From assembly GCA_041398865.1 (NCBI GenBank), contig JAWKTY010000017.1, positions 71,499 through 135,498 on the forward strand: a DNA stretch of 64,000 bases. The letters are read 5' to 3'. Both the position numbers and the translations under genes were made by a program. Origin of the DNA: Planctomycetaceae bacterium. GTDB taxonomy: Bacteria; Planctomycetota; Planctomycetia; Planctomycetales; Planctomycetaceae. The notes under the pieces are model-generated. The model ran no database searches. It worked only from the letters and a program-made list of their open reading frames with translations, and had not been told where the DNA came from. Shown here piece after piece: positions 6,935 to 62,541 of this stretch. How positions within the stretch are numbered: the stretch's first letter is position 1; every line of letters starts with the position of its first letter.

Positions 6935-7118
6935 AACCGGCGGGTATGTGAGCCGTGCGGGTTTCCGACAGCCCGAGGCCTGAGAAACCTTTCCGGTTTC
7001 GATCAAATGAGTGAAAAATGATTTACCCCGATCCGACGCCGCGGGACACTGGTGATTCCGTGGCACGGTCATCAGTCCCTTTGATCCACCACAACAGTCA
7101 ACCTTGAAGACTTCCCCT

Positions 7119-7823: not shown

Positions 7824-7836
7824 TGTCGCGTGATTC

Positions 7837-16181: not shown

Positions 16182-16240
16182 GTAGGTCAGGCTCCTGCCT
16201 GACGATCGGATCAGAACTGTCAGTCAGGAGCCTGGAGTGG
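16182..16240. repeat. REPIN-like element, GTAG-GTCAGGCTCCTGCCTGAC family
   Basis: GTAG + hairpin GTCAGGC-TCCT-GCCTGAC, 15-nt spacer, degenerate inverted copy; a further degenerate copy at ~16263-16283. Confidence 0.8.
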
Positions 16241-17446: not shown

Positions 17447-17950
17447 GTTGTGTTTCCGTTGGAACTTGCCGTGTTGAGATCTGGTCGGAACCGAGCGAGG
17501 ACGGCCTCAAAGCTCAGTCGTGTTTCGCCGACTGAAAAATATCAGATCATTAAGACCAGGGTTTTCCTGAAACTCCACAGACAGAAATGTCTGTGCCACC
17601 TGACGCAGATCGGCCGCCCAAACAGCTGGTCAGGTTCCCGCCAGACGATTTTCATCCAATTTTCAGACGGGAAACAGACCTGCATACTCAGACGGGGTCC
17701 TCTCTACCGACATTCCCGTTCGTCAGCACAGCGTCAGGAAAATCCTCGGGCGCGGAGGATAGCGAGATCCGGTGGAAATCGGGAGTGAACGAACCAATCC
17801 GTCGGAACGCACGGTGAATGTGTCAGGCAGTATCGCAGCGGGATTGCATCCGGTGCGGTGTCAGGCATGATTTGATGAGCAGGACGGCCTTTCCAGGCCG
17901 TCATACAGTCACTCATTCGAATATTGACAGACCACTCGTGTTTGCCTGGC

Positions 17951-25924: not shown

Positions 25925-26009
25925 GGACGAGGGTTTCGGTATTCAGCAGTTCCGACCGGAAGCAACATCGGAGATCCCGGACGGCGTCATTCTGAATTCA
26001 GGAATCAGG

Positions 26010-27698: not shown

Positions 27699-27719
27699 GA
27701 TTCCTGCGTATTCCTAAAA

Positions 27720-27938
27720 TGGGCAGTGCCCACACCCGATACGAGCTTCCGCTCGGAAACGCGACGTTGTCGCTCAGAAAAATGGGCGCACCGTACGCTC
27801 ATCGTTCTCATTCAGATCCTGCGTGGGCAGTGCCCACACCCGACACGACCTTCTGCTCGGAAACACGACGTTTTCGCTCAGAAAAATGGGCGCACGCTCC
27901 CATTCAGATCCTGGGTGGGCAGTGCCCACACTCGATTC
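27720..27938. repeat. Three tandem copies of a ~92-104-bp element built on the palindrome GTGGGCAGTGCCCAC
   Basis: Palindrome at ~27720, 27823-27837 and 27915-27929, with conserved downstream GCTCGGAAAC(G/A)CGACG...TCGCTCAGAAAAATGGGCGCAC. Confidence 0.85.
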
Positions 27939-27945
27939 GGGAGTT

Positions 27946-31767: not shown

Positions 31768-32187
31768 TGGAAAGAACCCGGAGGCAACGCAGGCTGAATC
31801 AGGCACTGGAAATTAAAACAGACAAAAAACCGCCAAAAAGGCGGGCACAGCAAGCATGAAAAAGGGGACGTCCTTTACCAATACTCACTCGCGCCCAGCG
31901 GAGTCAAACCCCGCAAAATGCCGGAAAGAGTCTGTATATTTCCCAAATTCGACAGCCAATTGCACCATTCTTGTGCGCCCCCAAAGACTTGCCTGGGAAT
32001 TGATCAGCCTGAGGCGGACGTAGCGGTTCTAACGAGGAAACCCGCTCCGGAGGTCCGCCTGGCCCCGTTAATTCTCACCTGTTTTGGCAGCTTGCCCCAG
32101 ACCGATCCGTCCGCGAACTCCATCCACCAGCAGCGAAGTTGTTCCTGATGGTGCATCGGCCGTGTGGGGCGGAGGACTCTCGCGAAT

Positions 32188-43162: not shown

Positions 43163-43221
43163 GCAGGTCAGGCTCCTGCCTGACAATCTGATCAAAGCCG
43201 TCAGGTCTGAACCTGACCTGG
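43163..43221. repeat. REPIN-like element (GTCAGGCTCCTGCCTGAC family)
   Basis: GCAG-GTCAGGCTCCTGCCTGAC, 15-nt spacer, GTCAGGTCTGAACCTGAC-CTGG. Confidence 0.8.
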
Positions 43222-47604: not shown

Positions 47605-48771
47605 GTGTTGAGTGTTCAACCCGGTCCTGTCGCACTTCCGGGATTGGGGGCAATCTTGAAACTCAATTTTCGACACTTTCTGGCAGCCTGTGTACTGGCA
47701 GGCACCTGGGGGCAGGCTGCCGAACCCGGTTCCACACAATCCGACTTCGGGCCGCTGACGATTGTTCCCACCGACGTGCAGTATCTGCCTCTTGAGCTGG
47801 ACGTCGCTCAGGCACCGGCGGTCGTTCCGCTCACCGATTCGCTTCGTCGTCCAACGATTCAGCAACTTCAGTACGAAGGCGAGTCTCTGACATCGGGAAC
47901 TCAGCAGGTTCAGTACACCCCGGCCACTGAATTTGTCTCGTCTGCCCCGACGTACTGCCCTCCCGCTTACTGCGGCGAAGGCTGTGTCTCCGGTTGCACT
48001 GAGGGCTGCTGCCAACAGAAATGCGGTTCGTGTGAGTCGGCACCACGGTTGTTTGGTTCTGTCGAAGTTCCGTTCCTGCAGCCGCGAATCAGCGGAGCCT
48101 TTCCGGTCTTCAATGTGTCGCCGGCAGCAGATCGTCTGATTGAACCTGACCACACGCCGTCGCTTCGTTTTCAGGCGGAATTCCGTCCCGAACCGACACT
48201 GGGCATTCGCGGGCGATACTTCACGTTCGACAGTAATTCCCCCTTCGGAAATCCGTTCCAGCCCGCTGAGTTCGGGATTCGTCTGGACGTCGCTGACCTG
48301 GAATTTGTCATCCACAAGGCATCCTGCCGCTGGAATTTCGATCTTTCCGGGGGGGTGCAGTACAGTCGGCTCGAGTATTCCGCCACGGTGCCCACGGCTG
48401 TCGGAGTCGGATCCGTGCGATTCGAAGGCGTGGGACCGGTCTTTGCGGCGAATGCAGAACACAAACTGGGCAGCACCAGCCTGGCAGTGTTCGGCGGTGT
48501 GCGAGCCTCGTACCTGATGGGAGAAACTCGAAACGCCGCGCTGCTGGTGAATGTTCCGCGATCAACCATTCACGACGAAATGATGCAGGTCTATCAGAAC
48601 CAGCTGGGAGTGGTCTGGAGACCGCAGTTCTTTGATCAAATCGGCATTGCTGTCAAAGCAGGCTGGGAAACTCAGTTCTGGCTGAACGACACCTTCGCCG
48701 ACGACAGTTATGGCATCGGTTCGAATCTCAGTCTGACAGGTCCGATGGTTTCGGCAGAAATCACCTTCTGA
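47605..48771 (+). CDS. Outer-membrane beta-barrel protein (planctomycete BBP7/Lpg1974-like); start possibly 47656
   Basis: Signal peptide, P/Q-rich and Cys-rich N-terminal linker, alternating amphipathic strands, C-terminal beta-signal VSAEITF. Confidence 0.7.
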   Translation: MLSVQPGPVALPGLGAILKLNFRHFLAACVLAGTWGQAAEPGSTQSDFGPLTIVPTDVQYLPLELDVAQAPAVVPLTDSLRRPTIQQLQYEGESLTSGTQQVQYTPATEFVSSAPTYCPPAYCGEGCVSGCTEGCCQQKCGSCESAPRLFGSVEVPFLQPRISGAFPVFNVSPAADRLIEPDHTPSLRFQAEFRPEPTLGIRGRYFTFDSNSPFGNPFQPAEFGIRLDVADLEFVIHKASCRWNFDLSGGVQYSRLEYSATVPTAVGVGSVRFEGVGPVFAANAEHKLGSTSLAVFGGVRASYLMGETRNAALLVNVPRSTIHDEMMQVYQNQLGVVWRPQFFDQIGIAVKAGWETQFWLNDTFADDSYGIGSNLSLTGPMVSAEITF

Positions 48772-48785
48772 GAAAGGGCTTTGCG

Positions 48786-49692
48786 ATGATCAAGCCCTAT
48801 CAGCATGCGGACTACATCGAATTGTCTGTTCATTTTCGGTGTAATCTGAAGTGTCAGCACTGCATGATTCTGGACAGCATGCACTGGCTGAAACCCGCAG
48901 ATGATGCGGAATTCGAAGCTCTGCTGGAAGAACAGCGTCGCGAACAAAAATGGAAGGGCCTGATTCTGACCGGCGCCGAAGTGACGCTTCGGAAGGATCT
49001 GCCCGACCTTGCTGTGCGAGCTCGTTCGGCTGGCTTTGAACGAGTCGGATTCAGAGCCACGCGATGCGACTGGCCGACCCCGCCTACTGCGAGAATCTGG
49101 TCGCCGCCGGCATTGATGAATACTTCATCAGTGTCACCGCCGCCGACGCTGAGACTCACGACAGGATCACCGAGGTCCCGGGATCGTTTGAGAAAACCAC
49201 ACGAGCCCTGCGCAATCTCGACCAGATTCCGGGAGTTCGGCTGATGACGAATACGGTGGTGACTCGGTTGAGTTACCGGACGGTGCCGGAGGTGATTGAC
49301 CTGTTCAGCGATCTGAAGCAGCTGATTCAGATGGACTTCTGGGGCTACTGGCCCATGGAAGAAGATGGCAATCCGGAACTGCTGGTGTCGCATCTCGAAG
49401 TGCGGCCATACCTGAAAGAACTCATCCGACGAGCTCGGCGGCTGATCGGTATATCGAAATCAAAAACTTTCCGGCCTGCCTGCTGGGCGAGGACGCTCGG
49501 GTTGTGATCAATGACCAGCCCGAACTTCGAACAGATCCCAGGTTCTGGACGGAATTCAATCGCAACGGATTTCATCAGTGTGCGTATCGCGACGTGTGCG
49601 GTTCGAATCAGTGCCTGGGACTGAATCGAGCCTATGTGAATCGTTACGGCTGGCTGGAAGACGTGCTGTCACCCATGCCACGAGCCGCGTGA
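48786..49692 (+). CDS. Radical SAM protein (two frameshifts, ~49050 and ~49440), ~302 aa when repaired
   Basis: HFRCNLKCQHCM (CxxxCxxC), LTGAEVTL, ETHDRITEVPGSFEKT, NFPAC and C-terminal QCAYRDVCGSNQCLG across three frames. Confidence 0.88.
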
Positions 49693-49745
49693 CCCCCAAA
49701 CCGACGGTGTCGCGATGAATCCGGGTGGTGAGAAATTGCAATCCG

Positions 49746-49799
49746 GAAGGTCGGGCTCCCGACAATTCGATCGAGGTGTCAGGCGGGAGCCTGACCTAC
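49746..49799. repeat. REPIN-like element upstream of the first halogenase
   Basis: GTCAGGCGGGAGCCTGAC-CTAC (reverse complement GTAG-GTCAGGCTCCCGCCTGAC) with a degenerate left partner and 14-nt spacer. Confidence 0.8.
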
Positions 49800-49817
49800 A
49801 GGTTGGATTGAGTAAAC

Positions 49818-52775
49818 ATGGACCGAGTCTCAGACAACCGAATTCAGGCGAACTCAGCCAAGCATTCTCTGATTGTGGTCGGAGGTGGCACGGCAGGGTG
49901 GATGACGGCTGCGCTGCTGAGTCTGAATCTGCGGCCGAAAGAGTGCAGTATCACGGTGGTGGCTGAAGACGATTCCGGCATCGGTGTGGGGGAAGCCACG
50001 ATTCCGCCGATTCTGAGACTGCTGAGGCATCTGCGGGCAGACGAGGCCGAGTTCATGCAGGCGTGCGACGCCACATGGAAACTGGGCATTCAGTTTTCCG
50101 ACTGGAAGACCATCGGCCATGACTACTGGCACCCCTTCGGAATATGCGGAGCTCGCATCGACGGTCGTGACCTGTTTCCCTACTGGCTGATGGAAAAGGA
50201 ACGGCCTTATCAGTCGTATTCGCTGCAGTGCGCCGCTGCCGTCGCCGGGAAGAGTCCTCACGCCCGGAATACTCGATCGCCCATTGCCGCTTCCGGAAGC
50301 TACGCCTTTCACCTGAACGCTCGAAAACTCTCCGCGTGGCTGCAGCAGCAGGCGACGGCTCGTGATGTTCAGCACGTTCGCGGACAGGTTGTTTCTGCAG
50401 AACGCAGTCAGACGGGCGATCTTACAACCGTCACGCTGAACAACGGCCAGGCACTGTCCGCGGACTTCTTTGTGGACTGTTCAGGTTTCGAATCCGTTTT
50501 GATGCGAAGCACGATGCAGGATCCTTGGATCGATGCCGGTGGCCACCTGCTGTGTGATCGGGCAGTCGCCGTCCGAACGCCGGGAACGCCGCTGATTCCT
50601 GCACACACCCGGTCGCTGGCGCTGACGGCCGGATGGAGCTGGGAGATTCCGCTGTTCAGTCAGCGCGGACTGGGCTACGTCTACAGCAGCCGTTTTGTGT
50701 CCGACGATGATGCATGGCGGCAGCTCATGCGAGCTCATCGGCTGAACGAAGACGGCGTGTGGGCTCCGCAGTTTCTGAAGATGGCCGTCGGTCGCCAGAC
50801 GAGCTTCTGGAAGCAGAATGTTCTGGCCGTCGGTCTGGCAGCCGGGTTTGTCGAACCGCTGGAATCCACCGGCCTGCATCTGGCTCAGGTCGGCATCGAA
50901 CGTTTTCTGGACCTGTTTGCCATCAGCGGCGACATGTCCTCGGTTCGCGACCTTTACAACCAGGAAATGACAGCTCTGTTCGACGACGTGCTGGACTTCA
51001 TTCAGCTGCATTACTTTCTCAGTCAGCGTGAGGATGCCTTCTGGAAGGCCGCACGAGACCTGCCACTTCGTCCGGCTCTGCAGCATCGTCTGCAGCTGTT
51101 TGATGATTCGGGTACTCTGGATGCGCGCCCGCCGGAAAGCTTCCCGGAGAGCAGTTACTACGCGGTGCTTGCCGGTCATCAGCGGATGCCGAAACGTCCT
51201 CCGGCGCTGGCCCTGGCTGTGGATCGGGAACGCCTGACAGTGGTAATGCAGGCCATTCAGGATCAGAATCGATCCGCTCTGCGAGGCCTGCCGCTGCATG
51301 AGGAAATGCTGAGACACGTTCACGGTTCTTCCCTGGCGCGACTTCCTGAAATGTCGGCAGCCAACTCAAAACTCAGCCGTATCGCGATGGTCTGCCTGAC
51401 TCCGGCCGTCGACAGTCACGAACATGACGGAGCCGATCTTCCGTCATACGGAATCCATCGCGTCCTGGCGGCAGTTGTTGCTCATCCGGACCTGTCCGAC
51501 GTTGAGATTCAGCTGTTTGACCTTGAAGTCGCCGATGTGAACGGCTACGTCGATGACCTGCTGGCCTTCGATCCGCAGATCATCGGGTTCTCGCTGTTTG
51601 TCTGGTCGATGGATTGCCTGATTCAGGTGGCCAGGACAATCAAACAGAAGCGGCCGAACTGTGTGATTGTTTTTGGAGGCCCGTCTGCCCGACCTCAGCT
51701 GCTGGACCTGCCACACTATCGCCAGGCCATCGATTACGTCGACGCCGTCGTGACTCGGGAAGGCGAAGAAACCTTCTGCGACATTGCTCTGGCGGTTCGC
51801 AATCGGCGAAGCACCGTCAGTATGTTTGACACTCTGAAGCATGTGTCCGGACTGGACCTGCCTACGCTGCTCGGCTGGCAGAATACCGGCTTTCGAACTC
51901 CACCGGAGAACCTGGATTCGATTGTCTCGCCCTACCAGATGGGCCTGATGAATTACCAGAGCGTCGGCTATCTGGAATCATTTCGCGGCTGTCCGATGTC
52001 CTGTGCCTTCTGCGAATGGGGAGCGAAGGACATCTCGAAGGGCTGCTTTTCGGAAGACTATCTGACTCGTGAACTGGAAGCTCTGCAGGCCAACGGCTGC
52101 CCTGCAGTGTTCAACGTCGACGCCGGACTGAATCTGAATGCCGCCGCCTTTCGCAATCTGGCCAATGCGGAAAAGAAGGTCCGATTTCTGAAGGACATTC
52201 AGCTGTGGTGCGAAATCTATCCGTCAAAGATTCGAGATGAACACATCGAATTTCTTTCGGAATGCGGACCGTCGTATCTGGGCGTCGGGCTGCAGTCATT
52301 CAATCCGGATGTGCTGAAACGCCTGCAGCGACCCTATGGTCGCGAGAACTTTGGTCCGGCCATTGAACGGCTGTCGTCGGTCGCAGCCAACATTGACGTA
52401 CAGATCATTTACGGCCTGCCAACGGATACCTGGGACGGCTTTATCGAAACGCTCAGCTATGCCCTGACGCTGCCGGTGACCGTTCGTATCTACCATTGTC
52501 TTGTGCTGCCGGACGCGCTGATGACTCGCGGGCTGCCGGAATGGGAAATGAAGTACGAACCGTACACGCTGTCGATGCAGTCGTGCGTCGGCTGGTCAGA
52601 ACAGGACCTGCTGGATATGCGAGCCATGCTGACTCGCGAGGCTCTGGCCTGCGGCGGGACGGCCGGTGACTTCTGGTGGTCGTTTCCACCACCGTCGCAG
52701 CGGACCACCATTCCGAATGTGTCTCAGCGTCACTTTGTTCCGGCGGCTGCTTCCGGAGTTCGAAAAAGTGCCTGA
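49818..52775 (+). CDS. Flavin-dependent (tryptophan halogenase family) halogenase in frame with a B12-binding radical SAM domain
   Basis: aa 1-511: GGGTAGW, GVGEAT, DATWKLGIQF, GWSWEIP, FVEPLESTG. aa 512-985: FSLFVWS, FGGPSA, REGEE, RGCPMSCAFCEW, GLQSF. Confidence 0.88.
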   Translation: MDRVSDNRIQANSAKHSLIVVGGGTAGWMTAALLSLNLRPKECSITVVAEDDSGIGVGEATIPPILRLLRHLRADEAEFMQACDATWKLGIQFSDWKTIGHDYWHPFGICGARIDGRDLFPYWLMEKERPYQSYSLQCAAAVAGKSPHARNTRSPIAASGSYAFHLNARKLSAWLQQQATARDVQHVRGQVVSAERSQTGDLTTVTLNNGQALSADFFVDCSGFESVLMRSTMQDPWIDAGGHLLCDRAVAVRTPGTPLIPAHTRSLALTAGWSWEIPLFSQRGLGYVYSSRFVSDDDAWRQLMRAHRLNEDGVWAPQFLKMAVGRQTSFWKQNVLAVGLAAGFVEPLESTGLHLAQVGIERFLDLFAISGDMSSVRDLYNQEMTALFDDVLDFIQLHYFLSQREDAFWKAARDLPLRPALQHRLQLFDDSGTLDARPPESFPESSYYAVLAGHQRMPKRPPALALAVDRERLTVVMQAIQDQNRSALRGLPLHEEMLRHVHGSSLARLPEMSAANSKLSRIAMVCLTPAVDSHEHDGADLPSYGIHRVLAAVVAHPDLSDVEIQLFDLEVADVNGYVDDLLAFDPQIIGFSLFVWSMDCLIQVARTIKQKRPNCVIVFGGPSARPQLLDLPHYRQAIDYVDAVVTREGEETFCDIALAVRNRRSTVSMFDTLKHVSGLDLPTLLGWQNTGFRTPPENLDSIVSPYQMGLMNYQSVGYLESFRGCPMSCAFCEWGAKDISKGCFSEDYLTRELEALQANGCPAVFNVDAGLNLNAAAFRNLANAEKKVRFLKDIQLWCEIYPSKIRDEHIEFLSECGPSYLGVGLQSFNPDVLKRLQRPYGRENFGPAIERLSSVAANIDVQIIYGLPTDTWDGFIETLSYALTLPVTVRIYHCLVLPDALMTRGLPEWEMKYEPYTLSMQSCVGWSEQDLLDMRAMLTREALACGGTAGDFWWSFPPPSQRTTIPNVSQRHFVPAAASGVRKSA

Positions 52776-54189
52776 TGTCGTGCCGTCAGCATGTCATTCC
52801 ACCAAGCGGTCCGGTCGCCGGATCGTGCTGGTGGCCATGTATCCGGCTCGCAATCCGGCCATGCCGGAATTCATTTCCAATCACGGAATTCGCATGGTCG
52901 AAGCGACTCTGCGAGCGTCCAGCCTGCCGGGGCTGGAGGTGACCGTTTTCGATCTGCACGACGCTGTCGCGGACGACCTGCTGCAGGCCATCACCGACAT
53001 CGATCCGGACGTGGTCGCGTTTTCCGCGTATCTCTGGTCGTTCCCGCTGTTTGCTGATGTCGCCGTGCGCCTGTACCGTGATGATCCCCGGCGGGTTGTG
53101 CTGCTTGGCGGTCCTTCGGCTCATCCGGCCATGCTGGATCAGCTACCGTTTCACGATCTGCGATCCGCTTTCGACGCGCTGATTGTGGGAGAAGGCGAAC
53201 ACACAATTCTGGAACTGATCAGTCTCTCCGATCGCAGTGCCTCAGCGATCAGCAATGTGCGAGGCATCGCTCAATGGAATGGTCGAGCGTGGCATCAGAC
53301 CGCGAAACGGCCTCTGTCGGACCTGAACGAACTTCCGTCGCCCTATGAAATGGGATTGGTGCCGCCAGGCGGTTTGGGTGTGCTGCAGACCTATCGAGGC
53401 TGTCCGTATACGTGTTCCTTTTGTGAATGGGGAACCATGGAGTCGCCGAAACGGGTTCGATCGGCCGACAGTCTGGCTCGCGAATTTCACGAGATGGCCG
53501 ACATCGATGTTGATGGAGCTCTGCTGGTGGACGCCGGACTGAACCTGAATGCCCGGGCATTCGAACAACTGGCCCTGGCAGCCGAAACAACCGGCTTCTT
53601 CCGTCACCGACGCCTGATTTCCGAAGTGTACCCCGCGAAGATTCAGGAAACGCATCTGCGATTTCTGGAGGACGTCGGTGAACCACTGATCGGCATCGGG
53701 CTGCAGTCGTTCGACAACGACGTGCTGGCTCATGTCGAGCGTTCGTTCGAGGAAGACCGGTTCGTCGCCAATGTTCAGGACCTGACATCAGTGGCTCGCG
53801 TTGCGATTGAAATCATCATGGGGCTGCCTGGCGATTCGCCGGAGAAGTTCCGCGAGAACTATTATCGAGCTCGACAGTTCCCGTGTGCTTTGCGAGTCTA
53901 CCACTGCTGCGTGCTGCCATCCGCTCTGATGGTGCGGTCGCCACCGGAACACCAGCTGAACTACGACCCGGTGACGCTGAAGATTCGTTCGTGCATGGGC
54001 TGGACTCAGGACGACATTCACGACGCATGCGAATTTCTGAACGGCGAAACCCGAACTCAGGCCGGCCAGATCGGTGAATACTTCTGGGTCTTTTCGACGC
54101 CTCAAAACGCAGCCCGTTTTACGGAAGATCATTTCGCGATTCGAAGCGTCCGAGCACCGCTTTCTGCTGAGAGGGAAAGGATTCCGTAG
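52768..54189 (+). CDS. B12-binding domain radical SAM protein (class B methyltransferase-like)
   Basis: GTG start with GGAG upstream, overlapping the previous stop; FSAYLWS, LGGPSAHP, GEGE, RGCPYTCSFCEW, GLQSF. Confidence 0.9.
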   Translation: MPDVVPSACHSTKRSGRRIVLVAMYPARNPAMPEFISNHGIRMVEATLRASSLPGLEVTVFDLHDAVADDLLQAITDIDPDVVAFSAYLWSFPLFADVAVRLYRDDPRRVVLLGGPSAHPAMLDQLPFHDLRSAFDALIVGEGEHTILELISLSDRSASAISNVRGIAQWNGRAWHQTAKRPLSDLNELPSPYEMGLVPPGGLGVLQTYRGCPYTCSFCEWGTMESPKRVRSADSLAREFHEMADIDVDGALLVDAGLNLNARAFEQLALAAETTGFFRHRRLISEVYPAKIQETHLRFLEDVGEPLIGIGLQSFDNDVLAHVERSFEEDRFVANVQDLTSVARVAIEIIMGLPGDSPEKFRENYYRARQFPCALRVYHCCVLPSALMVRSPPEHQLNYDPVTLKIRSCMGWTQDDIHDACEFLNGETRTQAGQIGEYFWVFSTPQNAARFTEDHFAIRSVRAPLSAERERIP

Positions 54190-54191
54190 GC

Positions 54192-55058
54192 ATGACAGAG
54201 ACTCTTCAGCAATCGCCTGTCCGCCGGCAACTCGGAACTCCTCAGGCGTTTTTCCGCCATCTGGAACTTCACGCCGATCAGGCCGATCTGTGTTCGCATG
54301 TCATCAGTGAACTGCGATCCGGCAGCCTGACGGGAATTGTTGTGCGGGGAGTTTACGACGAAGGCTTCATGGCAGATGTCACACAGCGTCTGGAAGCTCA
54401 TGACCCGCCGTTTCTGAAAACCATGTTTCCGGAGAAGTTTCGGTCGTGGTTTTACGGCCGGAATCTAAATCTGATGGGCACCGATCCCGCCACGTATTTT
54501 CAGCAGGCAGCCGAATTTCAGCAGCACATGCAGCAGCTGTTTCCCGAGAAACGAGGGTTTCAGCAGACGGTGATGAAGCTGTTGTCGGAACTGGACGGCG
54601 GAAGACCCTATCGAGCGGCTCCGGGCCCCGATGTCGGTCAGAGTTACATGCCGACGACATTTCGGGGCCATGCGGAAGGCGGCTACATTCCGCCGCACTG
54701 CGACAATGAGCAGTCCGTTCGCCCGGCCTATGAACATCTGGCAACGATGGTCTCACCTCACATGTATTCGATGATTCTGATGATCGCGGCTGCCGACGCA
54801 GGAGGAGATCTGGAGGTCTTCGATTACCACATCGAACCGCAGGAAGCCGGAGAACGTACCGGAGCCATCGCCGGGAAAGTTGACCTGAATCAGCTGTCCT
54901 CCGTGCAGATTCGGCTGCAGCCCGGAGACATGGTGATCGTCGATTCCGGACGCTATCTGCATCAGGTAACTCCCGTGATCGGCCCGACGACGCGGTGGGT
55001 CGCCTGCAGCTTTATGGCTCATTCCCGGGAACGAAATGCCGTCTACTGCTGGGGATGA
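54192..55058 (+). CDS. 2OG-Fe(II) dependent oxygenase
   Basis: YIPPHCDN (HxD), GGDLEVF, PGDMVIV, YLHQVTPV (distal His), RWVACSF (2OG-binding Arg). Confidence 0.85.
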   Translation: MTETLQQSPVRRQLGTPQAFFRHLELHADQADLCSHVISELRSGSLTGIVVRGVYDEGFMADVTQRLEAHDPPFLKTMFPEKFRSWFYGRNLNLMGTDPATYFQQAAEFQQHMQQLFPEKRGFQQTVMKLLSELDGGRPYRAAPGPDVGQSYMPTTFRGHAEGGYIPPHCDNEQSVRPAYEHLATMVSPHMYSMILMIAAADAGGDLEVFDYHIEPQEAGERTGAIAGKVDLNQLSSVQIRLQPGDMVIVDSGRYLHQVTPVIGPTTRWVACSFMAHSRERNAVYCWG

Positions 55059-55062
55059 TGCC

Positions 55063-55902
55063 ATGACAATTCTGACGCGTGCAGCACACAGATTCCCGGC
55101 TTATTTCGATCGACTGATTGAATCATTTCACGCCGGTCACTCAGGACGCCATGCGCATCTGGGATACTGGCACCCGGCACCTGAGACCGAAACGTCAGCG
55201 ATTGGTTTCGAAGAAGCTCAGGCAGCTCTGAACGAGCACCTGATTGCCATGACAGTACCGAGATCCGGAAGCCGAATTCTGGACGTCGCCTGTGGATTTG
55301 GCGGTTTGATTCAGCAGTTGGACCACGTTGTGTCCGGAACCGAACTGCATGGCATTAACCTTGATGACCGTCAGCTGAACATCTGTCAGCAGTTGAGATC
55401 AAATCATGGCAACGTTCTGCGCTGGCAGGAAGCGGATGCCTGTGATCTGCCGTTTGCCGATGCGATGTTTGATCTGATCTTTTGTGTGGAAGCCATCTTT
55501 CATTTTCAATCACGCGAGCAGTTCCTTTCGGAAGCGAAAAGAATTCTTCGACCCGGCGGTCGGCTGCTTCTGACGGATTTCACGCTGAAGGAATCGTCCG
55601 CTCTGCCGGCTTTCTGCATGGAAGCTGTTCTGACCGATGGTTACGGGCCCTGGCCGGACCCCTGGTGTCGCCGGGGAAACGTGTTTCAGCTGCTGAATGC
55701 TCAAGGCTGGCAGAACATCGTTTGCGAAGACCTGACTGCGGAAACACTGCCAACCTATCGCCATATTCTGCCCCGCGGAATGGATTCGGCCCGTGATCCC
55801 GGCGATCCCGCCACTCGCTCAGCTTTGATGCTGCAGTGGCTTCAGCAGAACGGCCATCTGACCTATGACTGCATTGCGGCACACACCGGAGCAAGCCTAT
55901 GA
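55063..55902 (+). CDS. Class I SAM-dependent methyltransferase (HxGYW type)
   Basis: HAHLGYW, ILDVACGFGG, ADACDLPFADAMFDLIFCVEAIFHF, RILRPGGRL. Confidence 0.9.
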   Translation: MTILTRAAHRFPAYFDRLIESFHAGHSGRHAHLGYWHPAPETETSAIGFEEAQAALNEHLIAMTVPRSGSRILDVACGFGGLIQQLDHVVSGTELHGINLDDRQLNICQQLRSNHGNVLRWQEADACDLPFADAMFDLIFCVEAIFHFQSREQFLSEAKRILRPGGRLLLTDFTLKESSALPAFCMEAVLTDGYGPWPDPWCRRGNVFQLLNAQGWQNIVCEDLTAETLPTYRHILPRGMDSARDPGDPATRSALMLQWLQQNGHLTYDCIAAHTGASL

Positions 55903-56489
55903 CACACGTGATTGCCATCTGCGGAACGATGGGAAGCGGAAAATCCACCGCGATCGCCCGGCTGCAGTCAAGACTGCCCAACTGCGAAACCCTGTTTGAA
56001 GACGATTTCAACCCGGCTCCCCTGAAGTCACTGGATGAAGTCCAGGAGTGGTTCGAAGCGGGCGGACGAGTCAGCGAATTTGATCTGTCAGCACTGGTTC
56101 AGCAACTGCGTGCGGCCACGTCTGCCGGGCGAGCCATCGTGCTGCTGGAAACGCAGTTCGGCAGAATGCATCCGGCGCTCAGACCCCTCATTGACCTGCA
56201 GTGCTGGATCGATGTGGAACCCGATCTCGCACTGGCCCGCAAGGTGACTCAACTGGCCCGACAGTTCGCCGGCGACGCGGAATCGCGCAGCGCTGATGCG
56301 GCAGAAGCATTGCTCTGGCTGGCGGAATTCTGCGACGGCTATTCTCAAATCACTCGAAAACTCTTCCTGCAGCAGCGAACGAGCGTTGGCCGGCAATCAG
56401 ACATTCAGATTTCCGGACACGCGTCCCCCGATGATGTCTGCGATCGCATCTGCCGATCACTGCCGTCATGGATGGCGGATGCCGCGTGA
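55899..56489 (+). CDS. P-loop small-molecule kinase (uridine kinase-like)
   Basis: VIAICGTMGSGKST (Walker A), VLLETQFG, WIDVEPDLALARK; ATGA overlap with the upstream gene. Confidence 0.75.
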   Translation: MTHVIAICGTMGSGKSTAIARLQSRLPNCETLFEDDFNPAPLKSLDEVQEWFEAGGRVSEFDLSALVQQLRAATSAGRAIVLLETQFGRMHPALRPLIDLQCWIDVEPDLALARKVTQLARQFAGDAESRSADAAEALLWLAEFCDGYSQITRKLFLQQRTSVGRQSDIQISGHASPDDVCDRICRSLPSWMADAA

Positions 56490-56548
56490 GTCGGTCAGGC
56501 TCCCGCCTGACAACAGGAACGGAGCTGTCAGGCAGGAGCCTGACCTGC
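56490..56548. repeat. REPIN-like element upstream of the second halogenase
   Basis: GTCAGGCTCCCGCCTGAC, 15-nt spacer, GTCAGGCAGGAGCCTGAC-CTGC. Confidence 0.85.
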
Positions 56549-56601
56549 TGAATTTCAGAACACTTCACGGCGTTGGGGACTGTCCACAAGGGAACAAAAC
56601 G

Positions 56602-58155
56602 ATGACAACATCAAAATCCGTGAAACAGACTCGGACACTGAGACTGCCCAAGCGAGTGGTCGTGCTGGGAAATGATGTCGTTGCCTGGATGGCAGCCGCG
56701 ATGCTGGCGAAGCATTTCATTTCGCTGCAGGTTCGCACCACGATCTGCCCGGGTGAAAATTCCGTCCCGCCTGGTCATGAGACGTTTGTTTCATCGCCTT
56801 CGCTCACGGCGTTGATTCGCAACTTCGGTGCTGACGAACACGACGTTCTGAAAGCGTGCAACGGGACCTATCGACTGGCAACTCAGTTTTCTGACTGGGC
56901 CAGTGAAGGCCGCGACTTCTGGCAGCCTCTGGGCCACGAAGAAATTCGCATGGCGGGCCTGCCGCTGTTTGACATTTGGGCCGCCGAACGCATTGCCGGT
57001 CGGCTGCTGCGTCCGCTGCATTCGTACACAGCTCACTGGACCGCATCGCTGGCCGGAAAAGCGCCGCATTCGTTTTCCGGAACGTCTCCACTGGCAGCTT
57101 CGGGGCAATACGGTTTTCATGGCGAAGCTGCCGGACTGGCTGGCTGGTTTCGAGCGACCGCGCTGAGCCTCGGCGTCGAGGAAATTTGCGGGCCGCTGGA
57201 TCAGACATTCGTCAATGGTCGCGGCGGATTGGCGCAGGTGAAGCTGACATCCGGCCAGGCGGTTCCAGGCGACCTGTTTCTGGAATGCCGCCCCGCACTC
57301 GCCGGCGATGAGATAGAGGACCTGAGCGACCGGTTTCTGTTCGATCGCCGAGTTTTCTTTCGAACCCCGGGAGCTCGCCGGATTCATCCTTTTACTCGAG
57401 TGACAGCCCATGACGCGGGCTGGTCCCGAACTGTGCCGCTGGCGGCTGAAGTGGAACACAGCTACGACTTCTGCAGTCGATTCCAGACTGATGATGACGC
57501 GGGAAAGTATCTCCGCAGCGTCGTCGATGGGCGTCTGGACAGTCCGCTGGATTCTGCGCCGGAACTGCACTTTGCGGACGTTCGACATTTTCTCCGGCGG
57601 GTGATCTGGAAAGACAACGTCCTGCATCTTGGCCGAAGTGCTCAGCAGCTGGAACCGCTGGCGGCCAACGACATGCACCTCGATCTGGCGGGAATCGAAT
57701 TGCTGCTGGAACTGGTCCCCGACCGCAGCATCGCTCGGTCAACTCGGGATGAGTATCTCAAGCGCAACACGGCCGTGCGGCAGGATGCGGTTCGCGAACT
57801 TCTGCTGCACCACGCCCTGCTGAATCGCAGCGATGCGCAGACCTGTGCGACCATCGCTGAAGCCGCTCGAACGGACGAGGTTCAGCAGCTGCTGGACGTT
57901 TATGAGTCTACCGGTGTGGTGCGAATTCACGCTCCGGAATCGACTCCGGCCGATCATCTTCGCAGTCTGCTGGCCGGTTGCCACCGCATGCCGCAGCGTC
58001 CGGTGATGGCGATTCGAAGTCTGGAGACAGGGCGACTGCAGCAGGCACTGCGAGACCTGGTGCAGCATCACGAAGCCACAGTGAAAGACCTTCCGCTGCA
58101 TGAAGAACTACTGGACTGGATTCATTCCGGTCCGTTTCAGAAGCAGGCGGGCTGA
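56602..58155 (+). CDS. Tryptophan-halogenase-family paralogue with degenerate catalytic motifs
   Basis: Aligns with the first halogenase end to end (QFSDW..DFWQP, LHSY, APHS, YGFH, LPLHEE), but has VVVLGNDVVAW, NGTYRLATQF, GWSRTVP and LEPLAAND. Confidence 0.85.
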   Translation: MTTSKSVKQTRTLRLPKRVVVLGNDVVAWMAAAMLAKHFISLQVRTTICPGENSVPPGHETFVSSPSLTALIRNFGADEHDVLKACNGTYRLATQFSDWASEGRDFWQPLGHEEIRMAGLPLFDIWAAERIAGRLLRPLHSYTAHWTASLAGKAPHSFSGTSPLAASGQYGFHGEAAGLAGWFRATALSLGVEEICGPLDQTFVNGRGGLAQVKLTSGQAVPGDLFLECRPALAGDEIEDLSDRFLFDRRVFFRTPGARRIHPFTRVTAHDAGWSRTVPLAAEVEHSYDFCSRFQTDDDAGKYLRSVVDGRLDSPLDSAPELHFADVRHFLRRVIWKDNVLHLGRSAQQLEPLAANDMHLDLAGIELLLELVPDRSIARSTRDEYLKRNTAVRQDAVRELLLHHALLNRSDAQTCATIAEAARTDEVQQLLDVYESTGVVRIHAPESTPADHLRSLLAGCHRMPQRPVMAIRSLETGRLQQALRDLVQHHEATVKDLPLHEELLDWIHSGPFQKQAG

Positions 58156-58173
58156 TTGCGGTCATCAACAGCG

Positions 58174-59193
58174 ATGTCGACAGATTACCTGGCTATTGAA
58201 CCGTTTCTGAAAGATGCTCTGCAGGGGCGAGCTCTGCAGAGTGCCTTCGATCTGGGAATCATCGATCGGCTGGCCGCGGCGGACGCCGATGTCACGGTTG
58301 ACGCGGCGCTGAAGGGTCTCGACTGCGATCGACCGGGAGGAAGTTTTCTGCTGCAGGTTCTGGCGTCTGCCAATGTCCTGCGACTGCAGAATGAACAGGT
58401 TCAACTCACGAATGCCTTTCGCAACGCGCTGCGGTTTCGGGATCTCATGATGACCAAGCTGCAGTTCGCTCAGCTGGTCGCGGCCGACTATTTCGAATGC
58501 CTGCCGCAGCTGTTGAGATCTGCGGAAGACTTCATGGGGGCCGCAAAGCTGTTCGAACTGTTCGATTACAGCCGCTGCATTGAGATCACGACCGGCAACT
58601 GCATGCAGGCCTCGCGCTGGATGCAGCTCACCACGATGCTGACTCGATACGAAGGGCCTGTCTGCTGCGACGCATGGGATTTTGGTCGACATCGACACAT
58701 GCTGGATGTTGGAGGCAACAGCGGAGAATTCGCGATGCAGGTCTGCCGCCGCGAACCGACTCTGACCGCCACGGTTCTGGATCTGCCGGTGGTTTGTCAG
58801 GTCGGAATGAGGCACCTTCAGCACCAGCCGGAAGCGAATCGCATTCAGTTTCACGCCGCCGACATGGTGCATGACGATTTTCCAGTCGGCGCAGATCTGA
58901 TTTGCTGGAAGTCCGTGCTGCACGACTGGCCGGATTCGGAAGTTCAGCACCTGCTGCAAAAGTCATTCGACCAGTTGCCCGTCGGAGGCCGCATCCTGAT
59001 TTTCGAACGCTGCCAATGGGATTCCAGTACCTTTCCCGTGTCGTATGGCCAGCTGCCGGTTCTGCTGTTCTTCCGATCCTACCGCAGCCCCGAAACCTAC
59101 GACCGGTGGCTCACAAACTGCGGCTTCCGAAACGTCACGACGAAATTCGTGCAGCTTGATGTCCCGTTTGTGTTGATGAGTGGGGAGAGGTAG
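58174..59193 (+). CDS. O-methyltransferase (Methyltransf_2 type)
   Basis: LQSAFDLGII dimerisation domain, MLDVGGNSG, VLDLP, AADMVHDDFP, KSVLHDWPD, GGRILIFE. Confidence 0.9.
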   Translation: MSTDYLAIEPFLKDALQGRALQSAFDLGIIDRLAAADADVTVDAALKGLDCDRPGGSFLLQVLASANVLRLQNEQVQLTNAFRNALRFRDLMMTKLQFAQLVAADYFECLPQLLRSAEDFMGAAKLFELFDYSRCIEITTGNCMQASRWMQLTTMLTRYEGPVCCDAWDFGRHRHMLDVGGNSGEFAMQVCRREPTLTATVLDLPVVCQVGMRHLQHQPEANRIQFHAADMVHDDFPVGADLICWKSVLHDWPDSEVQHLLQKSFDQLPVGGRILIFERCQWDSSTFPVSYGQLPVLLFFRSYRSPETYDRWLTNCGFRNVTTKFVQLDVPFVLMSGER

Positions 59194-59236
59194 ATTTTCG
59201 GTTCTCGGAGATGATCATCGATCTGAAATCTGAAAT

Positions 59237-60046
59237 TTACCCCGCTCCCTGATAATAGATCGTCAGAAACGGCTGGTCGCTCCGCGTTCGGCCGGCGGAG
59301 ATGTGGCCGACGGTGGCGGCGGCTGTCTTGTGGAGCCATTCGTTCACTTCGTTGTCGGCACAGGTGAAGCGTTCGGCGATGACATGGACGAGGTCCGTGA
59401 TGAGGGCCACGGGCTGCTGAGCGGCGTAGACATTCAAGTCGAATGATCGACGGTCACTGCCTTCTTCCGTGACTTCCAGCAGTCGCATCTCGGCCTTGTC
59501 CGTCTCGCATTCCGGTTCCAGTCTCTGGGCAAGTTGCGACAGTTCAGGTCGCAGTTCTTCCGGCGCCTCGTTCAGAAAGCACTCAGTCAGTGACGACGGA
59601 CCCTGCGGATGAACGTTTCGATAGCGACTGACCACCGCCAGGGACGTGTCATTCATCGACCACTTGAACCCCAGAAACATCAGCCGACCGTCATCGGCAG
59701 ACGTTGCCGGAACGGATGACGACAGTTCCAGGTAGCACTTGCCGATCGCGGTGCTGACTGAGTACTCAAAGCCGAAATGAACAAAGGCCGCCGATCGGAA
59801 ATAGCGACGGATGGCCGTCAGATGCGCGATCGGACTGCTCATCGCTCGGCAGATCTGCAACACTTCATCCACTGAACTCAGTTCTTCAATGGCGGCAGTC
59901 GGCACAGAAAACAGAGCTCGACGCGGTTCGAACATGCCAGGCTGCAGGCGCACGGAACGTTCCGACAGCACGGGCAGCTGCCGATCGATCAGCCACCGTC
60001 GAAGTTCGGCAAGGCCGCTGTTGTCAAACCAGTCCGCCGGAATCAT
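59237..60046 (-). CDS. Hypothetical protein, possible ABBA/PT-barrel fold
   Basis: 269-aa ORF with five putative beta-hairpins separated by helical segments; the fold is inference from pattern only. Confidence 0.6.
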   Translation of the reverse strand: MIPADWFDNSGLAELRRWLIDRQLPVLSERSVRLQPGMFEPRRALFSVPTAAIEELSSVDEVLQICRAMSSPIAHLTAIRRYFRSAAFVHFGFEYSVSTAIGKCYLELSSSVPATSADDGRLMFLGFKWSMNDTSLAVVSRYRNVHPQGPSSLTECFLNEAPEELRPELSQLAQRLEPECETDKAEMRLLEVTEEGSDRRSFDLNVYAAQQPVALITDLVHVIAERFTCADNEVNEWLHKTAAATVGHISAGRTRSDQPFLTIYYQGAG

Positions 60047-60062
60047 AAATCCGCATCTTCCT

Positions 60063-60962
60063 ATGGCTGCACCGTTTTCTCATCAGTCCGTCGATCAGCG
60101 AATTCTGAACGAAAGAATTCGCCCGGGCGACCCTGCGCTGAATTACTGTTTGTGGCCGTACCAGCCGCCGACAGTTCCGGACGGAAAACTGCGAGCCTCC
60201 AGTTTACTGCTGAAAGCCATTCAGGAGATGCCCGCCGCGGACTGGCTGCTGCAGACGGTGGATATCATTCAGGCCGGCCTGGGTGATTTTCGCAGTGTGT
60301 ACGGAATTAAGCAGATTGATGGCCGGTGGTCTCTGGAAGTGTATCTGTACGACTACGAACGGGAAAACCGAGCCGTCTCGATTGAACGCCTGAATGCGGC
60401 CTGTGCCGGTCAGATCTCCCTTCCCGCGACAGTTGGAAGTCATGTGCCGTATTTCATGTTTTCCTTTGACCTTGATGCTCGGGTCGCTCAGGCCAACGGA
60501 CGCATCGAAGTCGTTCATGTTTACATCGGCAATCCGGGAAGCATGGTTTCCAGCGGCATCAGTTACGGGTTTACCCGGGACCCCGACGCCACCGAACTGG
60601 AAAACCTGTACTTCTTCTTCGCCGCCGACAACCGAGCGGAAATCCACGACAAGGTGACCTGTGCGGCCTGTCTGAACGATCCGCAGACGCTGCTGGCGAC
60701 CGTGCTGCCAGAGCAGTTGATGACATGCCACACCATCTGCCTGGCCAACAAGCGATTCAGCAACACGGCGTACTTCTCCGGAATCAACTTGCAGCAGCTG
60801 ATCTGGTTTCTGCAGTGGCAGCAGTATTCGAAATCCTTCTGCCGCTTCATCGACGATCACGCCCACGAACTTGACCATCTGCTGTACGACGTTGGAGTTG
60901 ACTACCAGGTGCGTGATCAGCAGATCCGGTTTACAAAATCCGGAGTCTACGGAGTCTTTTAA
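60063..60962 (+). CDS. Hypothetical protein, possible ABBA/PT-barrel fold
   Basis: 299-aa aromatic-rich ORF from the ATG at 60063 (NYCLWPY, LEVYLYDY, PYFMFSFD, GNPGS, ENLYFFF, YFSGI, KSGVYGVF). Confidence 0.65.
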   Translation: MAAPFSHQSVDQRILNERIRPGDPALNYCLWPYQPPTVPDGKLRASSLLLKAIQEMPAADWLLQTVDIIQAGLGDFRSVYGIKQIDGRWSLEVYLYDYERENRAVSIERLNAACAGQISLPATVGSHVPYFMFSFDLDARVAQANGRIEVVHVYIGNPGSMVSSGISYGFTRDPDATELENLYFFFAADNRAEIHDKVTCAACLNDPQTLLATVLPEQLMTCHTICLANKRFSNTAYFSGINLQQLIWFLQWQQYSKSFCRFIDDHAHELDHLLYDVGVDYQVRDQQIRFTKSGVYGVF

Positions 60963-61104: not shown

Positions 61105-62541
61105 CTAACCTTTGGCCGCTTCCTTGATGGCCAGCAGTTCCGTTCGTTCCGGCATGGCTTTGTAAAACGGGTCCAGAGGGTAGCAGCCTGAAACAATGCC
61201 GTTGCGAGGTGCGGTGGTGCAGTCGCTGAAGGTTCGGCAGATCTTTTTTCGAGCCATCGAACGTCCGTTCAGGACATCGGTCGGAAGTTCAGGATAAGAC
61301 AGCACCATGCGGCCCAGACCGATCGAATCGGCCATTCCCGAACGGACAACCGCCTGGCCAACATTCGGCAGCCATTCCTGCAGATACGAGTATCCGCTGC
61401 CCACGACGATCATCCCCGGATATCTGCGTTTGATGTCAGCCGTCGCGGCAATTTGCCGGTGAACTCCCACCAGCGGATCTTCGGGCGGCTGATAACCGTC
61501 GGAAGGAGGAAAGATCGCGGGCCGCTGAATGTGAGGGTTGTAGTACGGACTGCCGCAGGTCGTGCACAGCAGATCGATGCTGAGATCTTCCAGCAGCTGA
61601 ACAAATCGCGACGGCTCTTTCAGATCGATTCCCTGCCCGGTTCCGTCACCTCCGAACGCACACGCATACGGACTTCCGGCTGATGGAACTCCGGTGCGTT
61701 CAGCATTGTCGCCCGGTTCAAACGGCGTAAAATCAAAGATGCTGATTCGAACGCCGATTTCCAGTCCCGGTGCTTCCGACCGAATGCCGTCGACGATGTT
61801 TCGCAGAAAGCGAGTTCGATTTTCGAAGCTGCCTCCGAACTGACCAGGGCGATCAAATCCCGACAGCAGTTCATGCCCCAGATAACCGTGGCAGTGTTTG
61901 ACGTCGACCCAGGCAAAGCCGGCTTTCTGAGCCAGCACGCAGGCGGCGACGAAGTCGTCGATCAGCTGCTTCAGGTCATCATCCGTCAGCAGCGGACCGT
62001 CATCGGAAATTTTCAGGCGCCGATCCAGCACCGGATGGTGGTAGACAATGCGAGGTTCGCCGGTCTGCTTGCTGTTGGGTTTTGCATAGCGACCGGAATG
62101 AGTCAGCTGCAGACCGATGCACAGGTCATCCGTCTGACCAAAGTGCTGCTGATGAGTCTTCACCAGCAGTGTTCGCAGATCAATCAGATCTCCGATGGTT
62201 TCGGAACTGATCATCAGCTGATTCGGGTTGGCTCGCCCGTCATGCCGGACAGCGACGGCCTCGCCGCCCCAGATCAGTTTGGCTCCGCTGAGTCCGAAGT
62301 TCTGCCAGCGACGTCGAGTCAGGTCTGTGGGACGACCGTCTGTGGTGCCGTCCCAGCCTTCCATCGGCAGAATGCAGAAGCGGTTGCCGATCAGGCCAGC
62401 CGCACTGACAAGCGGCTGAGCCAGCGGGCCTGACGATCCGGATTCGACAGCATCGTCAACAGGCAGCTCAAGTTCCAGTTCCCGCAATCGCTCCTGAAAC
62501 TCGGCGGCCGTCCGGAATGTGGAAACACGGGGGTACGACAT
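61105..62541 (-). CDS. NADH:flavin oxidoreductase (Old Yellow Enzyme-like TIM barrel)
   Basis: [66 protein letters not shown]. Confidence 0.9.

Follow-up and report, generated by a model that had tools for sequence, protein, structure and literature searches.

A conserved planctomycete gene cluster that combines two candidate PT-barrel prenyltransferases with radical SAM, halogenase and WelO5-family enzymes

We analyzed a 64,000-nucleotide stretch of a genome assembly from a Planctomycetaceae bacterium (GenBank GCA_041398865.1, contig JAWKTY010000017.1, positions 71,499 to 135,498 of the forward strand), referred to below as the window, and found that positions 47605-60962 hold a cluster of 12 genes that is conserved as a unit far beyond chance. 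An open reading frame (ORF) and spacing check defined genes A through K, with gene C taken as two genes (C1 and C2) and with A through I co-oriented. The cluster is built from known superfamilies, but it includes two new sequence families predicted to adopt the prenyltransferase barrel (PT-barrel) fold and an uncharacterized core trio formed by these proteins and a small radical S-adenosylmethionine (SAM) enzyme, making it a strong and well-conserved genome-mining lead. In the reading that we favor, and to which we give about an even chance, this is a conserved cluster of functional type whose product is an aromatic small molecule, probably indole-like, that is prenylated, poly-methylated, hydroxylated, halogenated, and exported.

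The search for related loci, which used protein E as the query and one genome per species, yielded 19 loci in two phyla. Seven of them come from metagenome-assembled genomes (MAGs) of Planctomycetaceae/Fuerstiella, wherein the order A-B-halogenase-B12 radical SAM-D-E-F-G-H-I-J(reverse)-K is kept and the proteins are 40-80% identical to those of the window. The complete 12-gene order is present in loci L007-L009, L011, and L013, and the order is the same in L010 and L012, where contig ends intervene. The remaining 12 loci are from Burkholderiales/Sulfuritalea MAGs (~45-58% identity), and none of these includes a halogenase. Two of them (L019 and L022) read I-B-J-K-G-E-F-C2-D and two others (L016 and L020) read J-G-E-F-C2-D; the rest carry G-E-F-C2-D or E-F-C2-D, with several ending at contig edges. 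A first-pass annotation of this DNA had proposed an undescribed cluster and had named a lack of co-occurrence in other genomes as grounds for giving up the idea. Because the gene set recurs in 19 loci, that objection does not hold, and no matching characterized pathway was found.

Comparison of these and additional loci indicates how the cluster is assembled. B is found with J and K in L006, L019, L022, L027, and L028, and I is found with J and K in L002, L003, L006, L019, and L022. In L002, the genes I-J-K lie beside a MarR regulator, an ATP-binding cassette (ABC) exporter, and an OEP gene, and L006 combines I-B-J-K with a halogenase. Domain of unknown function DUF3467 is fused to J in L027 (DUF3467-J, B, and K), in L028 (DUF3467-J-J, B, and K), and in L029 (DUF3467-J and B), where the contig stops before K could appear. 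Thus, B, J, and K, often with I and DUF3467, form a widespread core that is the most widely recurring part of the cluster. The genes G-E-F-C2-D make up a second module that moves together, and the C1/H halogenase pair and the porin-like protein A are additions seen only in planctomycetes.

Genes J (59237-60046, reverse strand) and K (60063-60962, forward strand) are arranged head to head. Both had been described previously as barrels of unknown family, and AlphaFold models built with homologue alignments agree with that description. The predicted local distance difference test (pLDDT) score and predicted template modeling (pTM) score are 92.9 and 0.90 for J and 94.0 and 0.91 for K, and each model contains ten strands in αββα order as assigned by DSSP. 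When the models were compared with the Protein Data Bank (PDB) by using Foldseek, K matched AmbP3, FamD1, AmbP1, NphB, TleC, EpzP, and CloQ (best E value 4e-7, TM-scores 0.41-0.50), and J matched PagF, 6-DMATS, CdpNPT, PriB, KgpF, DciF, and LimF (best E value 3e-6, TM-scores 0.5-0.58). All PDB matches listed at E<=1e-3 are ABBA prenyltransferases (50 listed per protein). Searches of PDB sequences with phmmer and with profiles gave nothing significant for J or K, the only prenyltransferase match being to LynF/TruF/PatF at E 0.59, and J and K have no sequence relation to each other that is detectable by comparisons including hhalign.

Residues that are invariant among homologues include K83, E92, Y94, Y96, H152, Y154, Y183, K230, and K292 in K and R43, E94, K103, Y105, K128, R141, Y142, R199, R255, and Y264 in J. 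The invariant Lys, Arg, Tyr, Asp, and Glu residues of both proteins alternate along the predicted strands, which is the pattern expected of a barrel lining that binds diphosphate, and they would accordingly be predicted to face the cavity. Judged by these models, J and K are candidates for two new sequence families with a prenyltransferase fold, and prenyl transfer is their predicted activity. Because they are candidate scaffold-forming prenyltransferases, the first-pass view of a "tailoring-only" cluster is not borne out: the structural neighbors of J and K are solely prenyltransferases, and the two genes belong to a core with B rather than being an appendage. The annotated divergent starts of J and K are only 16 nt apart (60046-60063), which leaves hardly any space for two promoters; the true start of one of the two genes may be further inside it.

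The J family comprises at least 1,095 representative clusters at 50% identity in a full hidden Markov model search, and it has neither a Pfam model nor a characterized member. There are 337 homologues of K, and all those with a source name are from planctomycetes; tblastn adds the Burkholderiales loci. Many J homologues carry an N-terminal DUF3467 or a tandem second J domain, and a literature search on DUF3467 found nothing relevant. One 675-aa homologue (P0335) has an FAD_binding_3 monooxygenase domain fused to the J-family barrel, which points to cooperation between J-family proteins and flavoenzymes in other lineages too. The 272-277-aa J homologues P0260, P0268, and P0279 are named "tryptophan halogenase" or "tryptophan 7-halogenase" by the Joint Genome Institute (JGI), yet they carry no halogenase domain, and these names were probably carried over from neighboring genes. 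An ORF of L018 (7435-8706) that was considered as a divergent J or K was ruled out by hhalign.

Two kinds of neighboring genes were noted beside J or K in other genomes. In two betaproteobacterial MAGs (L020, 1325-3495 and 3511-7645, and L016), DUF3467 is fused to GAF-HlyD, and the next genes encode an M50 peptidase-HlyD fusion, a SecA-like ATPase, and a further HlyD protein; an RTX-repeat protein is encoded upstream, and the whole set directly precedes J-G-E-F-C2-D. In four contexts, giant genes (2,000 to >11,000 aa, with no Pfam domains) lie directly beside K or J, namely in L004 (11494-20885), L006 (12567-20885), L029 (3-6185), and JGI 3300072015, and two of them begin with an LE(P/Q)RMLL motif. 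The available parts of the giant genes are not homologous to one another, and therefore the adjacency of those in L004, L006, and L029 to J or K is probably incidental.

The other cluster genes belong to recognizable families, as called with Pfam and NCBIfam; none of them matches an NCBIfam equivalog at the curated cut-off. B (48786-49692, forward strand, as are all genes described in this and the next two paragraphs) encodes a small radical SAM protein with a CX3CX2C motif (CNLKCQHC) and a C-terminal Cys-rich region of the auxiliary-cluster type, and Pfam Radical_SAM is detected on both of its pieces. The nearest NCBIfam families are HxsC4 (1e-23), TIGR04053, AhbD, and MoaA, all under cut-off. 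C2 (51351-52775) and D (52768-54189) are paralogues with 34% identity that each match the Pfam B12-binding and Radical_SAM models. Both have the N-terminal B12-binding domain and the CX3CX2C motif (CPMSCAFC and CPYTCSFC) that define class B radical SAM methylases, and the solved structures nearest to D are those of TokK (7kdx, 5e-20) and CysS (9n1b, 5e-18).

C1 (49818-51350) corresponds to a flavin-dependent halogenase domain (Pfam Trp_halogenase, 2e-133, residues 18-468 of C). Its motifs are complete (GGGTAGW, the catalytic Lys in TWKLG, WSWEIP, and EPLES) and are kept in the orthologues, and judging from these motifs C1 is an active halogenase. The nearest solved structures are 9luq, 6y1w (Xcc4156), and 6frl (BrvH), whereas RebH, Thal, and PrnA are more distant. 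The top database matches of C are ~1000-aa tandem double halogenases (for example, L001, 10001-13159), along with halogenases fused to DUF6445 or Cupin_8. These double and fused halogenases sit in loci for TonB-dependent receptors in other bacteria, whose genes differ from those of the cluster, which is a separate and likewise uncharacterized context for the halogenase family, and the ~1000-aa matches were therefore dropped as relatives of the cluster. The second halogenase gene, H (56602-58155, Pfam Trp_halogenase, 2e-57), is 33% identical to C1 and is predicted to be catalytically dead. The GxGxxG motif is changed to GNDVVA, the Lys to Arg, WxWxIP to WSRTVP, and EPLES to EPLAAN. The loss of GxGxxG is common to all seven orthologues examined, which indicates that H has been maintained as a pseudo-enzyme and did not decay recently. 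Its earlier designation as a pseudo-halogenase is thus well founded.

E (54192-55058) belongs over its full length to the WelO5 family of Fe(II)/2-oxoglutarate oxygenases (Pfam WelO5 PF22814, 1.2e-74) and aligns over its whole length with WelO5 of the PDB (1.6e-29). Where the WelO5 halogenase reads H-V-G, E reads H-C-D, with the Asp aligning to the position of Gly166 (compare the G166D variant, 5iqu), and the HxD...H triad is kept in 20 of 20 E orthologues. Because the motif is HxD instead of HxG/A, E is, as far as its sequence can tell, an enzyme of the hydroxylase type and not a halogenase; the label "oxygenase" that it had been given is too generic. F (55063-55902) encodes a class I SAM methyltransferase that is UbiE/CMAS-like by Pfam and NCBIfam. 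The product of G (55899-56489) is a small P-loop kinase-like protein with a nucleoside-kinase-like Walker A motif (NCBIfam PRK08233, 2e-20, under cut-off), and in the PDB it matches only nicotinamide riboside kinase, at the P-loop. I (58174-59193) encodes an O-methyltransferase of the small-molecule type with a dimerization domain (Pfam Methyltransf_2 and Dimerisation). A (47605-48771) encodes an outer-membrane β-barrel protein with a Cys-rich N-terminal region (Pfam Legionella_OMP, 2e-9). It is the first cluster gene in planctomycetes, and its orthologue lies directly upstream of B in L007-L011 (38-60% identity).

The copy of the cluster in the window carries three single-base deletions relative to all orthologues within ~2.3 kb (49046 to 51337). 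By tblastn mapping of the intact 302-aa orthologue from L007, B was found to run through three frames, with -1 shifts near 49046 and again near 49450-49470, whereas the orthologues occupy a single frame. One of the three radical SAM domains previously proposed for the cluster (those of B, C2, and D), namely that of B, is thus frameshifted in the window. The third change explains the C1-C2 fusion. The halogenase and the first B12 radical SAM protein are encoded by separate genes in every planctomycete orthologous locus examined, and the orthologous halogenases end in "...A(K/R)AS*" where the window reads "...LARLPEMSAAN...". If a single base is inserted after CGA near 51337, the ending "LARAS*" is regained and the ATG of the radical SAM gene comes next, and so one missing base is sufficient to account for the fusion. 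A halogenase-radical SAM fusion as a widespread architecture was ruled out accordingly, as the arrangement is unique among 5.8 billion proteins.

These changes raise the possibility that the local cluster is decaying, such that B is a pseudogene, the mutational process that disabled it also produced the C1-C2 fusion, and no final product is made here. This account applies if the frameshifts in B are real, is independent of the other alternatives considered below, and in our estimation is somewhat unlikely. The three -1 changes are concentrated in ~2.3 kb, and D through K and other window genes tested against Pfam models or orthologues are full length, which indicates that the changes are not the signature of a generally poor assembly. 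However, the fusion leaves both C domains in frame and intact, the other ten genes are undamaged, and errors of local assembly could account for the changes. The matching public contigs come from low-depth wastewater and activated-sludge metagenomes, and none spans ~49046, ~49460, or ~51337. Thus, the local copy may be partly disabled, unless the frame changes are errors of assembly.

For the favored reading, that the cluster makes a modified aromatic small molecule, we propose the following pathway. J and K would each move a prenyl group from a prenyl diphosphate of primary metabolism onto an aromatic acceptor that is also drawn from primary metabolism; alternatively, one of the two would transfer the prenyl group and the other would bind or cyclize. 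B would carry out radical C-H functionalization or C-C bond formation on the prenylated intermediate, and E would hydroxylate an unactivated sp3 carbon. I would O-methylate a hydroxyl, and F would methylate a heteroatom (O or N) or an olefin. C2 and D would place methyls onto unactivated carbons, possibly iteratively, and could extend a methoxy group or a prenyl methyl in the manner of CysS. Phosphorylation of an intermediate by G could serve activation or self-protection. C1 would add a halogen to an electron-rich ring, bromination or chlorination in the manner of BrvH being the most likely reaction, with H acting as its non-catalytic partner, and A would allow passage of the product across the outer membrane.

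We favor a small-molecule pathway because the enzyme classes that could be typed are known from free small molecules and because no precursor ORF, recognition element for ribosomally synthesized and post-translationally modified peptides (RiPPs), or leader protease was identified. The classes concerned are the Methyltransf_2 O-methyltransferase, the WelO5 family, the TokK/CysS-like methylases, the BrvH-like halogenase, and the nucleoside-kinase-like P-loop protein. Known substrates of the WelO5 family are prenylated indoles of the hapalindole type, and an indole-type ring is most consistent with this family and with the BrvH-like relatives of the halogenase. Free tryptophan, which had been suggested as a substrate, is not an obvious one, since the nearest relatives of the halogenase, BrvH and Xcc4156, do not accept it (PMC7754283). 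Export genes adjoin the cluster in several lineages (ABC/OEP or HlyD/OEP).

Several observations weigh against this reading. The product, the substrate, and the activity of all members are predictions from gene content and modeled folds. Neither J nor K matches a Pfam or NCBIfam family at E<=0.1, including the models for the known prenyltransferase families PTase_Orf2, Trp_DMAT, and cyanobactin TruF/PatF, and their TM-scores to known prenyltransferases are modest (0.41-0.58). The cluster includes no prenyl diphosphate synthase and no flavin reductase, and B is frameshifted in the window. In one planctomycete genome, J and K are solitary on separate contigs (L005 and L026), and they may thus serve a broader function than in this pathway alone. 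The remaining points fit a peptide substrate: the frequent fusion of J to DUF3467, a domain also seen on an HlyD-type secretion protein; the many peptide maturases among the NCBIfam families nearest to B; and the RiPP prenyltransferases that are the best structural matches of J.

This last set of points leads to a RiPP or protein-modifying system, in which J and K would prenylate, B and the B12 radical SAM enzymes would cross-link and C-methylate, and E would hydroxylate a ribosomal peptide or secreted protein encoded elsewhere, with C1 halogenating a Trp residue and DUF3467 providing peptide recognition. We consider such a system unlikely, but several observations speak for it. The top structural matches of J are peptide prenyltransferases of the cyanobactin type (PagF, KgpF, LimF, DciF, PirF, and PatF), the curated families nearest to B include HxsC4, HxsC, StsB, WgkB, PqqE, and nif11-class maturases, and C2 and D also match RiPP C-methyltransferase models (TIGR03975 and ApyD). 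DUF3467 is fused both to many J homologues and to the GAF-HlyD protein that neighbors M50-HlyD, SecA-like, and RTX proteins in L020 and L016, and giant genes of secreted type adjoin the system in four contexts. However, the adjoining giant proteins are not homologous to one another, and DUF3467 is absent from the window, though fused to J elsewhere. No RiPP recognition element, leader peptidase, or C39 transporter was found by Pfam and NCBIfam among the 12 cluster genes. The earlier remark that no obvious precursor peptide is present was upheld when 40 small ORFs from the gaps and flanks of the cluster were compared with all loci by tblastn and gave no conserved match; a 93-aa ORF of L019 and a 76-aa ORF of L006 likewise have no homologue in the other loci. 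Moreover, the O-methyltransferase, WelO5-family, TokK/CysS-like, and BrvH-like classes are known from small-molecule substrates.

A housekeeping-like role is also conceivable, in which the enzymes modify an endogenous membrane isoprenoid, quinone, or cofactor and the radical SAM proteins act on isoprenoid chains as do HpnR, HpnP, and Tes. Both J and K occur widely in planctomycetes, K with 337 homologues, and can be found on their own beside housekeeping genes such as LpxI, and the matches of C2 and D to HpnR and ladderane-lipid B12 radical SAM models, of B to Tes, of F to UbiE/MenG/CMAS, and of I to BchU point in the same direction. All such matches are far under the curated cut-offs, however, and the patchy presence of the cluster in only some Planctomycetaceae and some Burkholderiales, the adjacent export genes, and the combination of a halogenase with a WelO5-type enzyme, which would be unusual in primary lipid or quinone metabolism, make this role quite improbable. 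Least credible, and in our view very improbable indeed, is a pure tailoring set without a scaffold enzyme that modifies free tryptophan, indole, or another primary metabolite, with J and K as unrelated hypothetical neighbors. Every recognizable family does represent decorating enzymes, and the lack of a nonribosomal peptide synthetase (NRPS), polyketide synthase (PKS), terpene synthase, or chorismate lyase reported by the first-pass annotation was confirmed by Pfam and NCBIfam on the 12 genes. But J and K, which are co-located with B and I in every lineage examined except for one genome, are conserved beside these two more widely than any other gene. Both also have a predicted prenyltransferase fold, and the closest relatives of the halogenase are enzymes for which Trp is not a substrate (PMC7754283).

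Alongside the small-molecule reading of the whole cluster, we tentatively advance, at rather less than even confidence, a broader proposal for its core. B, J, and K, with DUF3467 where present, may constitute a widespread, unannotated three-gene enzyme system of several bacterial phyla, in which two new PT-barrel families and a small radical SAM enzyme together give rise to a new class of prenyl-derived compound or of post-translational modification. In planctomycetes, a halogenase/pseudo-halogenase heterocomplex and two iterative B12 methylases would be added to this core.

With regard to layout, the genes, spacings, and repeat-bearing gaps given in the first-pass annotation were reproduced by ORF and palindrome analysis. 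A is separated by 14 nt from B, C (49818-52775) and D overlap by 8 nt, D and E are 2 nt apart, E and F are 4 nt apart, F and G overlap by 4 nt, and 18 nt lie between H and I. The two larger intergenic gaps each hold a palindrome of the repetitive extragenic palindromic (REP) type with the sequence GTCAGGC-N3-AGCCTGAC, present as a single copy (49778-49795) in the gap at 49693-49817 and as an inverted doublet (56494-56511 and 56527-56544) in the gap at 56490-56601. Throughout the window there are 12 strand matches to this palindrome versus 0.21 expected from shuffles. Outside the cluster, single copies were observed at 16186-16203 and 17629-17646, and a second, closely spaced doublet (starting at 43167 and 43200) was observed at 43167-43217. 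The elements are thus short, over-represented, intergenic palindromes that also occur as inverted pairs, as is characteristic of REPINs. Scans for sigma-70 promoters and terminators gave no signal exceeding shuffled expectation, and metatranscriptome runs from the same study contain essentially none of the region.

GC content is flat over the window at ~57%, and the remaining genes are typical of planctomycetes, including DUF1559/N-methyl proteins, a sulfatase, a type II secretion system (T2SS)/secretin set, and an exosortase. Given the flat GC content and these surroundings, there is no sign that the cluster is a recent insertion. A gene resembling old yellow enzyme (61105-62541) and a methylenetetrahydrofolate reductase gene were dropped as cluster members because they are conserved in no related locus. 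At the beginning of the window are genes for two large Calx-beta/LapA-like proteins (57-3800 and 3776-6934), an exosortase EpsH homologue (7837-9588), and a tetratricopeptide repeat protein (9483-11132), and this set (57-11132) could be an exosortase-type sorting system. A T2SS/pilus-like set on the reverse strand (24914-31806) includes a T2SS F protein, a T2SS E ATPase with MshEN, and a 1286-aa protein with a secretin domain.

To our knowledge, planctomycetes have almost no characterized secondary metabolism. Rule-based miners would overlook the present cluster, since it lacks an NRPS, a PKS, and a terpene synthase and since no Pfam model covers its predicted scaffold enzymes. Its description provides a genomic context for a halogenase of the BrvH/Xcc4156 type and places predicted hydroxylases of the WelO5 family outside cyanobacteria. 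The conserved pseudo-halogenase H may be a new kind of partner protein, and the pair of TokK/CysS-like methylases could be a source of unusual branched alkyl groups. As the J-B-K core extends far beyond the cluster, a single biochemical characterization would annotate more than 1,000 protein clusters. If B, J, and K indeed form a new enzyme system, they would represent a new class of natural product or modification, and the cluster would for the first time place an "orphan" halogenase like BrvH and Xcc4156 in its native context and might also reveal its native substrate.

The searchable literature yielded no characterized pathway built from this set of genes, but several known systems share parts of it. 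One of the closest parallels is the hapalindole/ambiguine/welwitindolinone pathway of stigonematalean cyanobacteria (AmbP1/FamD2, AmbP3/FamD1, WelO5/AmbO5, and WelM), which, like the cluster, combines soluble ABBA prenyltransferases, acting there on indole, with a WelO5-family Fe/2-oxoglutarate enzyme and methyltransferases. The best structural matches of K are AmbP3, FamD1, and AmbP1, and E is a clear member of the WelO5 family. However, J and K have no detectable sequence similarity to the AmbP/FamD proteins, and the host phyla differ. Neither the isonitrile synthase (WelI1-3) nor the Stig cyclase is among the 12 cluster genes as judged by Pfam and NCBIfam, E carries HxD rather than HxG, and halogenation in the cluster would be carried out by a flavin enzyme. 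Conversely, the hapalindole-type pathway has no counterparts of the two B12 radical SAM enzymes, the small radical SAM enzyme, or the kinase-like gene.

The αββα barrel predicted for J is shared with the cyanobactin F-type enzymes (PagF, KgpF, LimF, and PatF) and with bacterial dimethylallyltryptophan synthase (DMATS) enzymes (IptA, PriB, and CymD), which are its best structural neighbors. J nevertheless has no relation to them at the sequence level, and the cluster has no cyanobactin protease or precursor genes. Members of the J family typically carry a fused DUF3467 and have a small radical SAM protein as their partner, and we know of no such fusion or pairing for cyanobactin F-type or DMATS prenyltransferases.

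A halogenated and O-methylated aromatic compound, 3,5-dibromo-p-anisic acid, is made in a planctomycete by stand-alone enzymes (baaA/baaB, with baaC) that were missed by antiSMASH, via a chorismate lyase with an adjacent single flavin brominase and an unlinked O-methyltransferase (10.1101/723874). This route was rejected as a match because its gene content differs: the cluster has no chorismate lyase and adds the PT-barrel proteins, the radical SAM enzymes, and the WelO5-type enzyme.

BrvH and Xcc4156 are, together with 9luq, the solved structures closest to C1, whose catalytic motifs are all present. Both brominate indole but not tryptophan, and neither has a known native substrate (PMC5945002, PMC7754283, and PMC7336383). 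C1 differs from them in its setting: it belongs to a defined biosynthetic cluster that also encodes a conserved inactive paralogue, and in the window it is fused to a radical SAM protein. Finally, the nearest solved relatives of D are the carbapenem methylase TokK (related to ThnK) and the cystobactamid methylase CysS, although the similarity is only at E values of about 1e-18 to 1e-20. The cluster has no NRPS or carbapenem genes and encodes two paralogous methylases rather than one. Both TokK and CysS are iterative C-methylases, and CysS extends a methoxy to a branched alkoxy group (PMC12846815; 10.1101/2021.07.10.451909). Because an O-methyltransferase is encoded alongside, as is the case with CysS, an extension of this kind is plausible for the product of the cluster as well.

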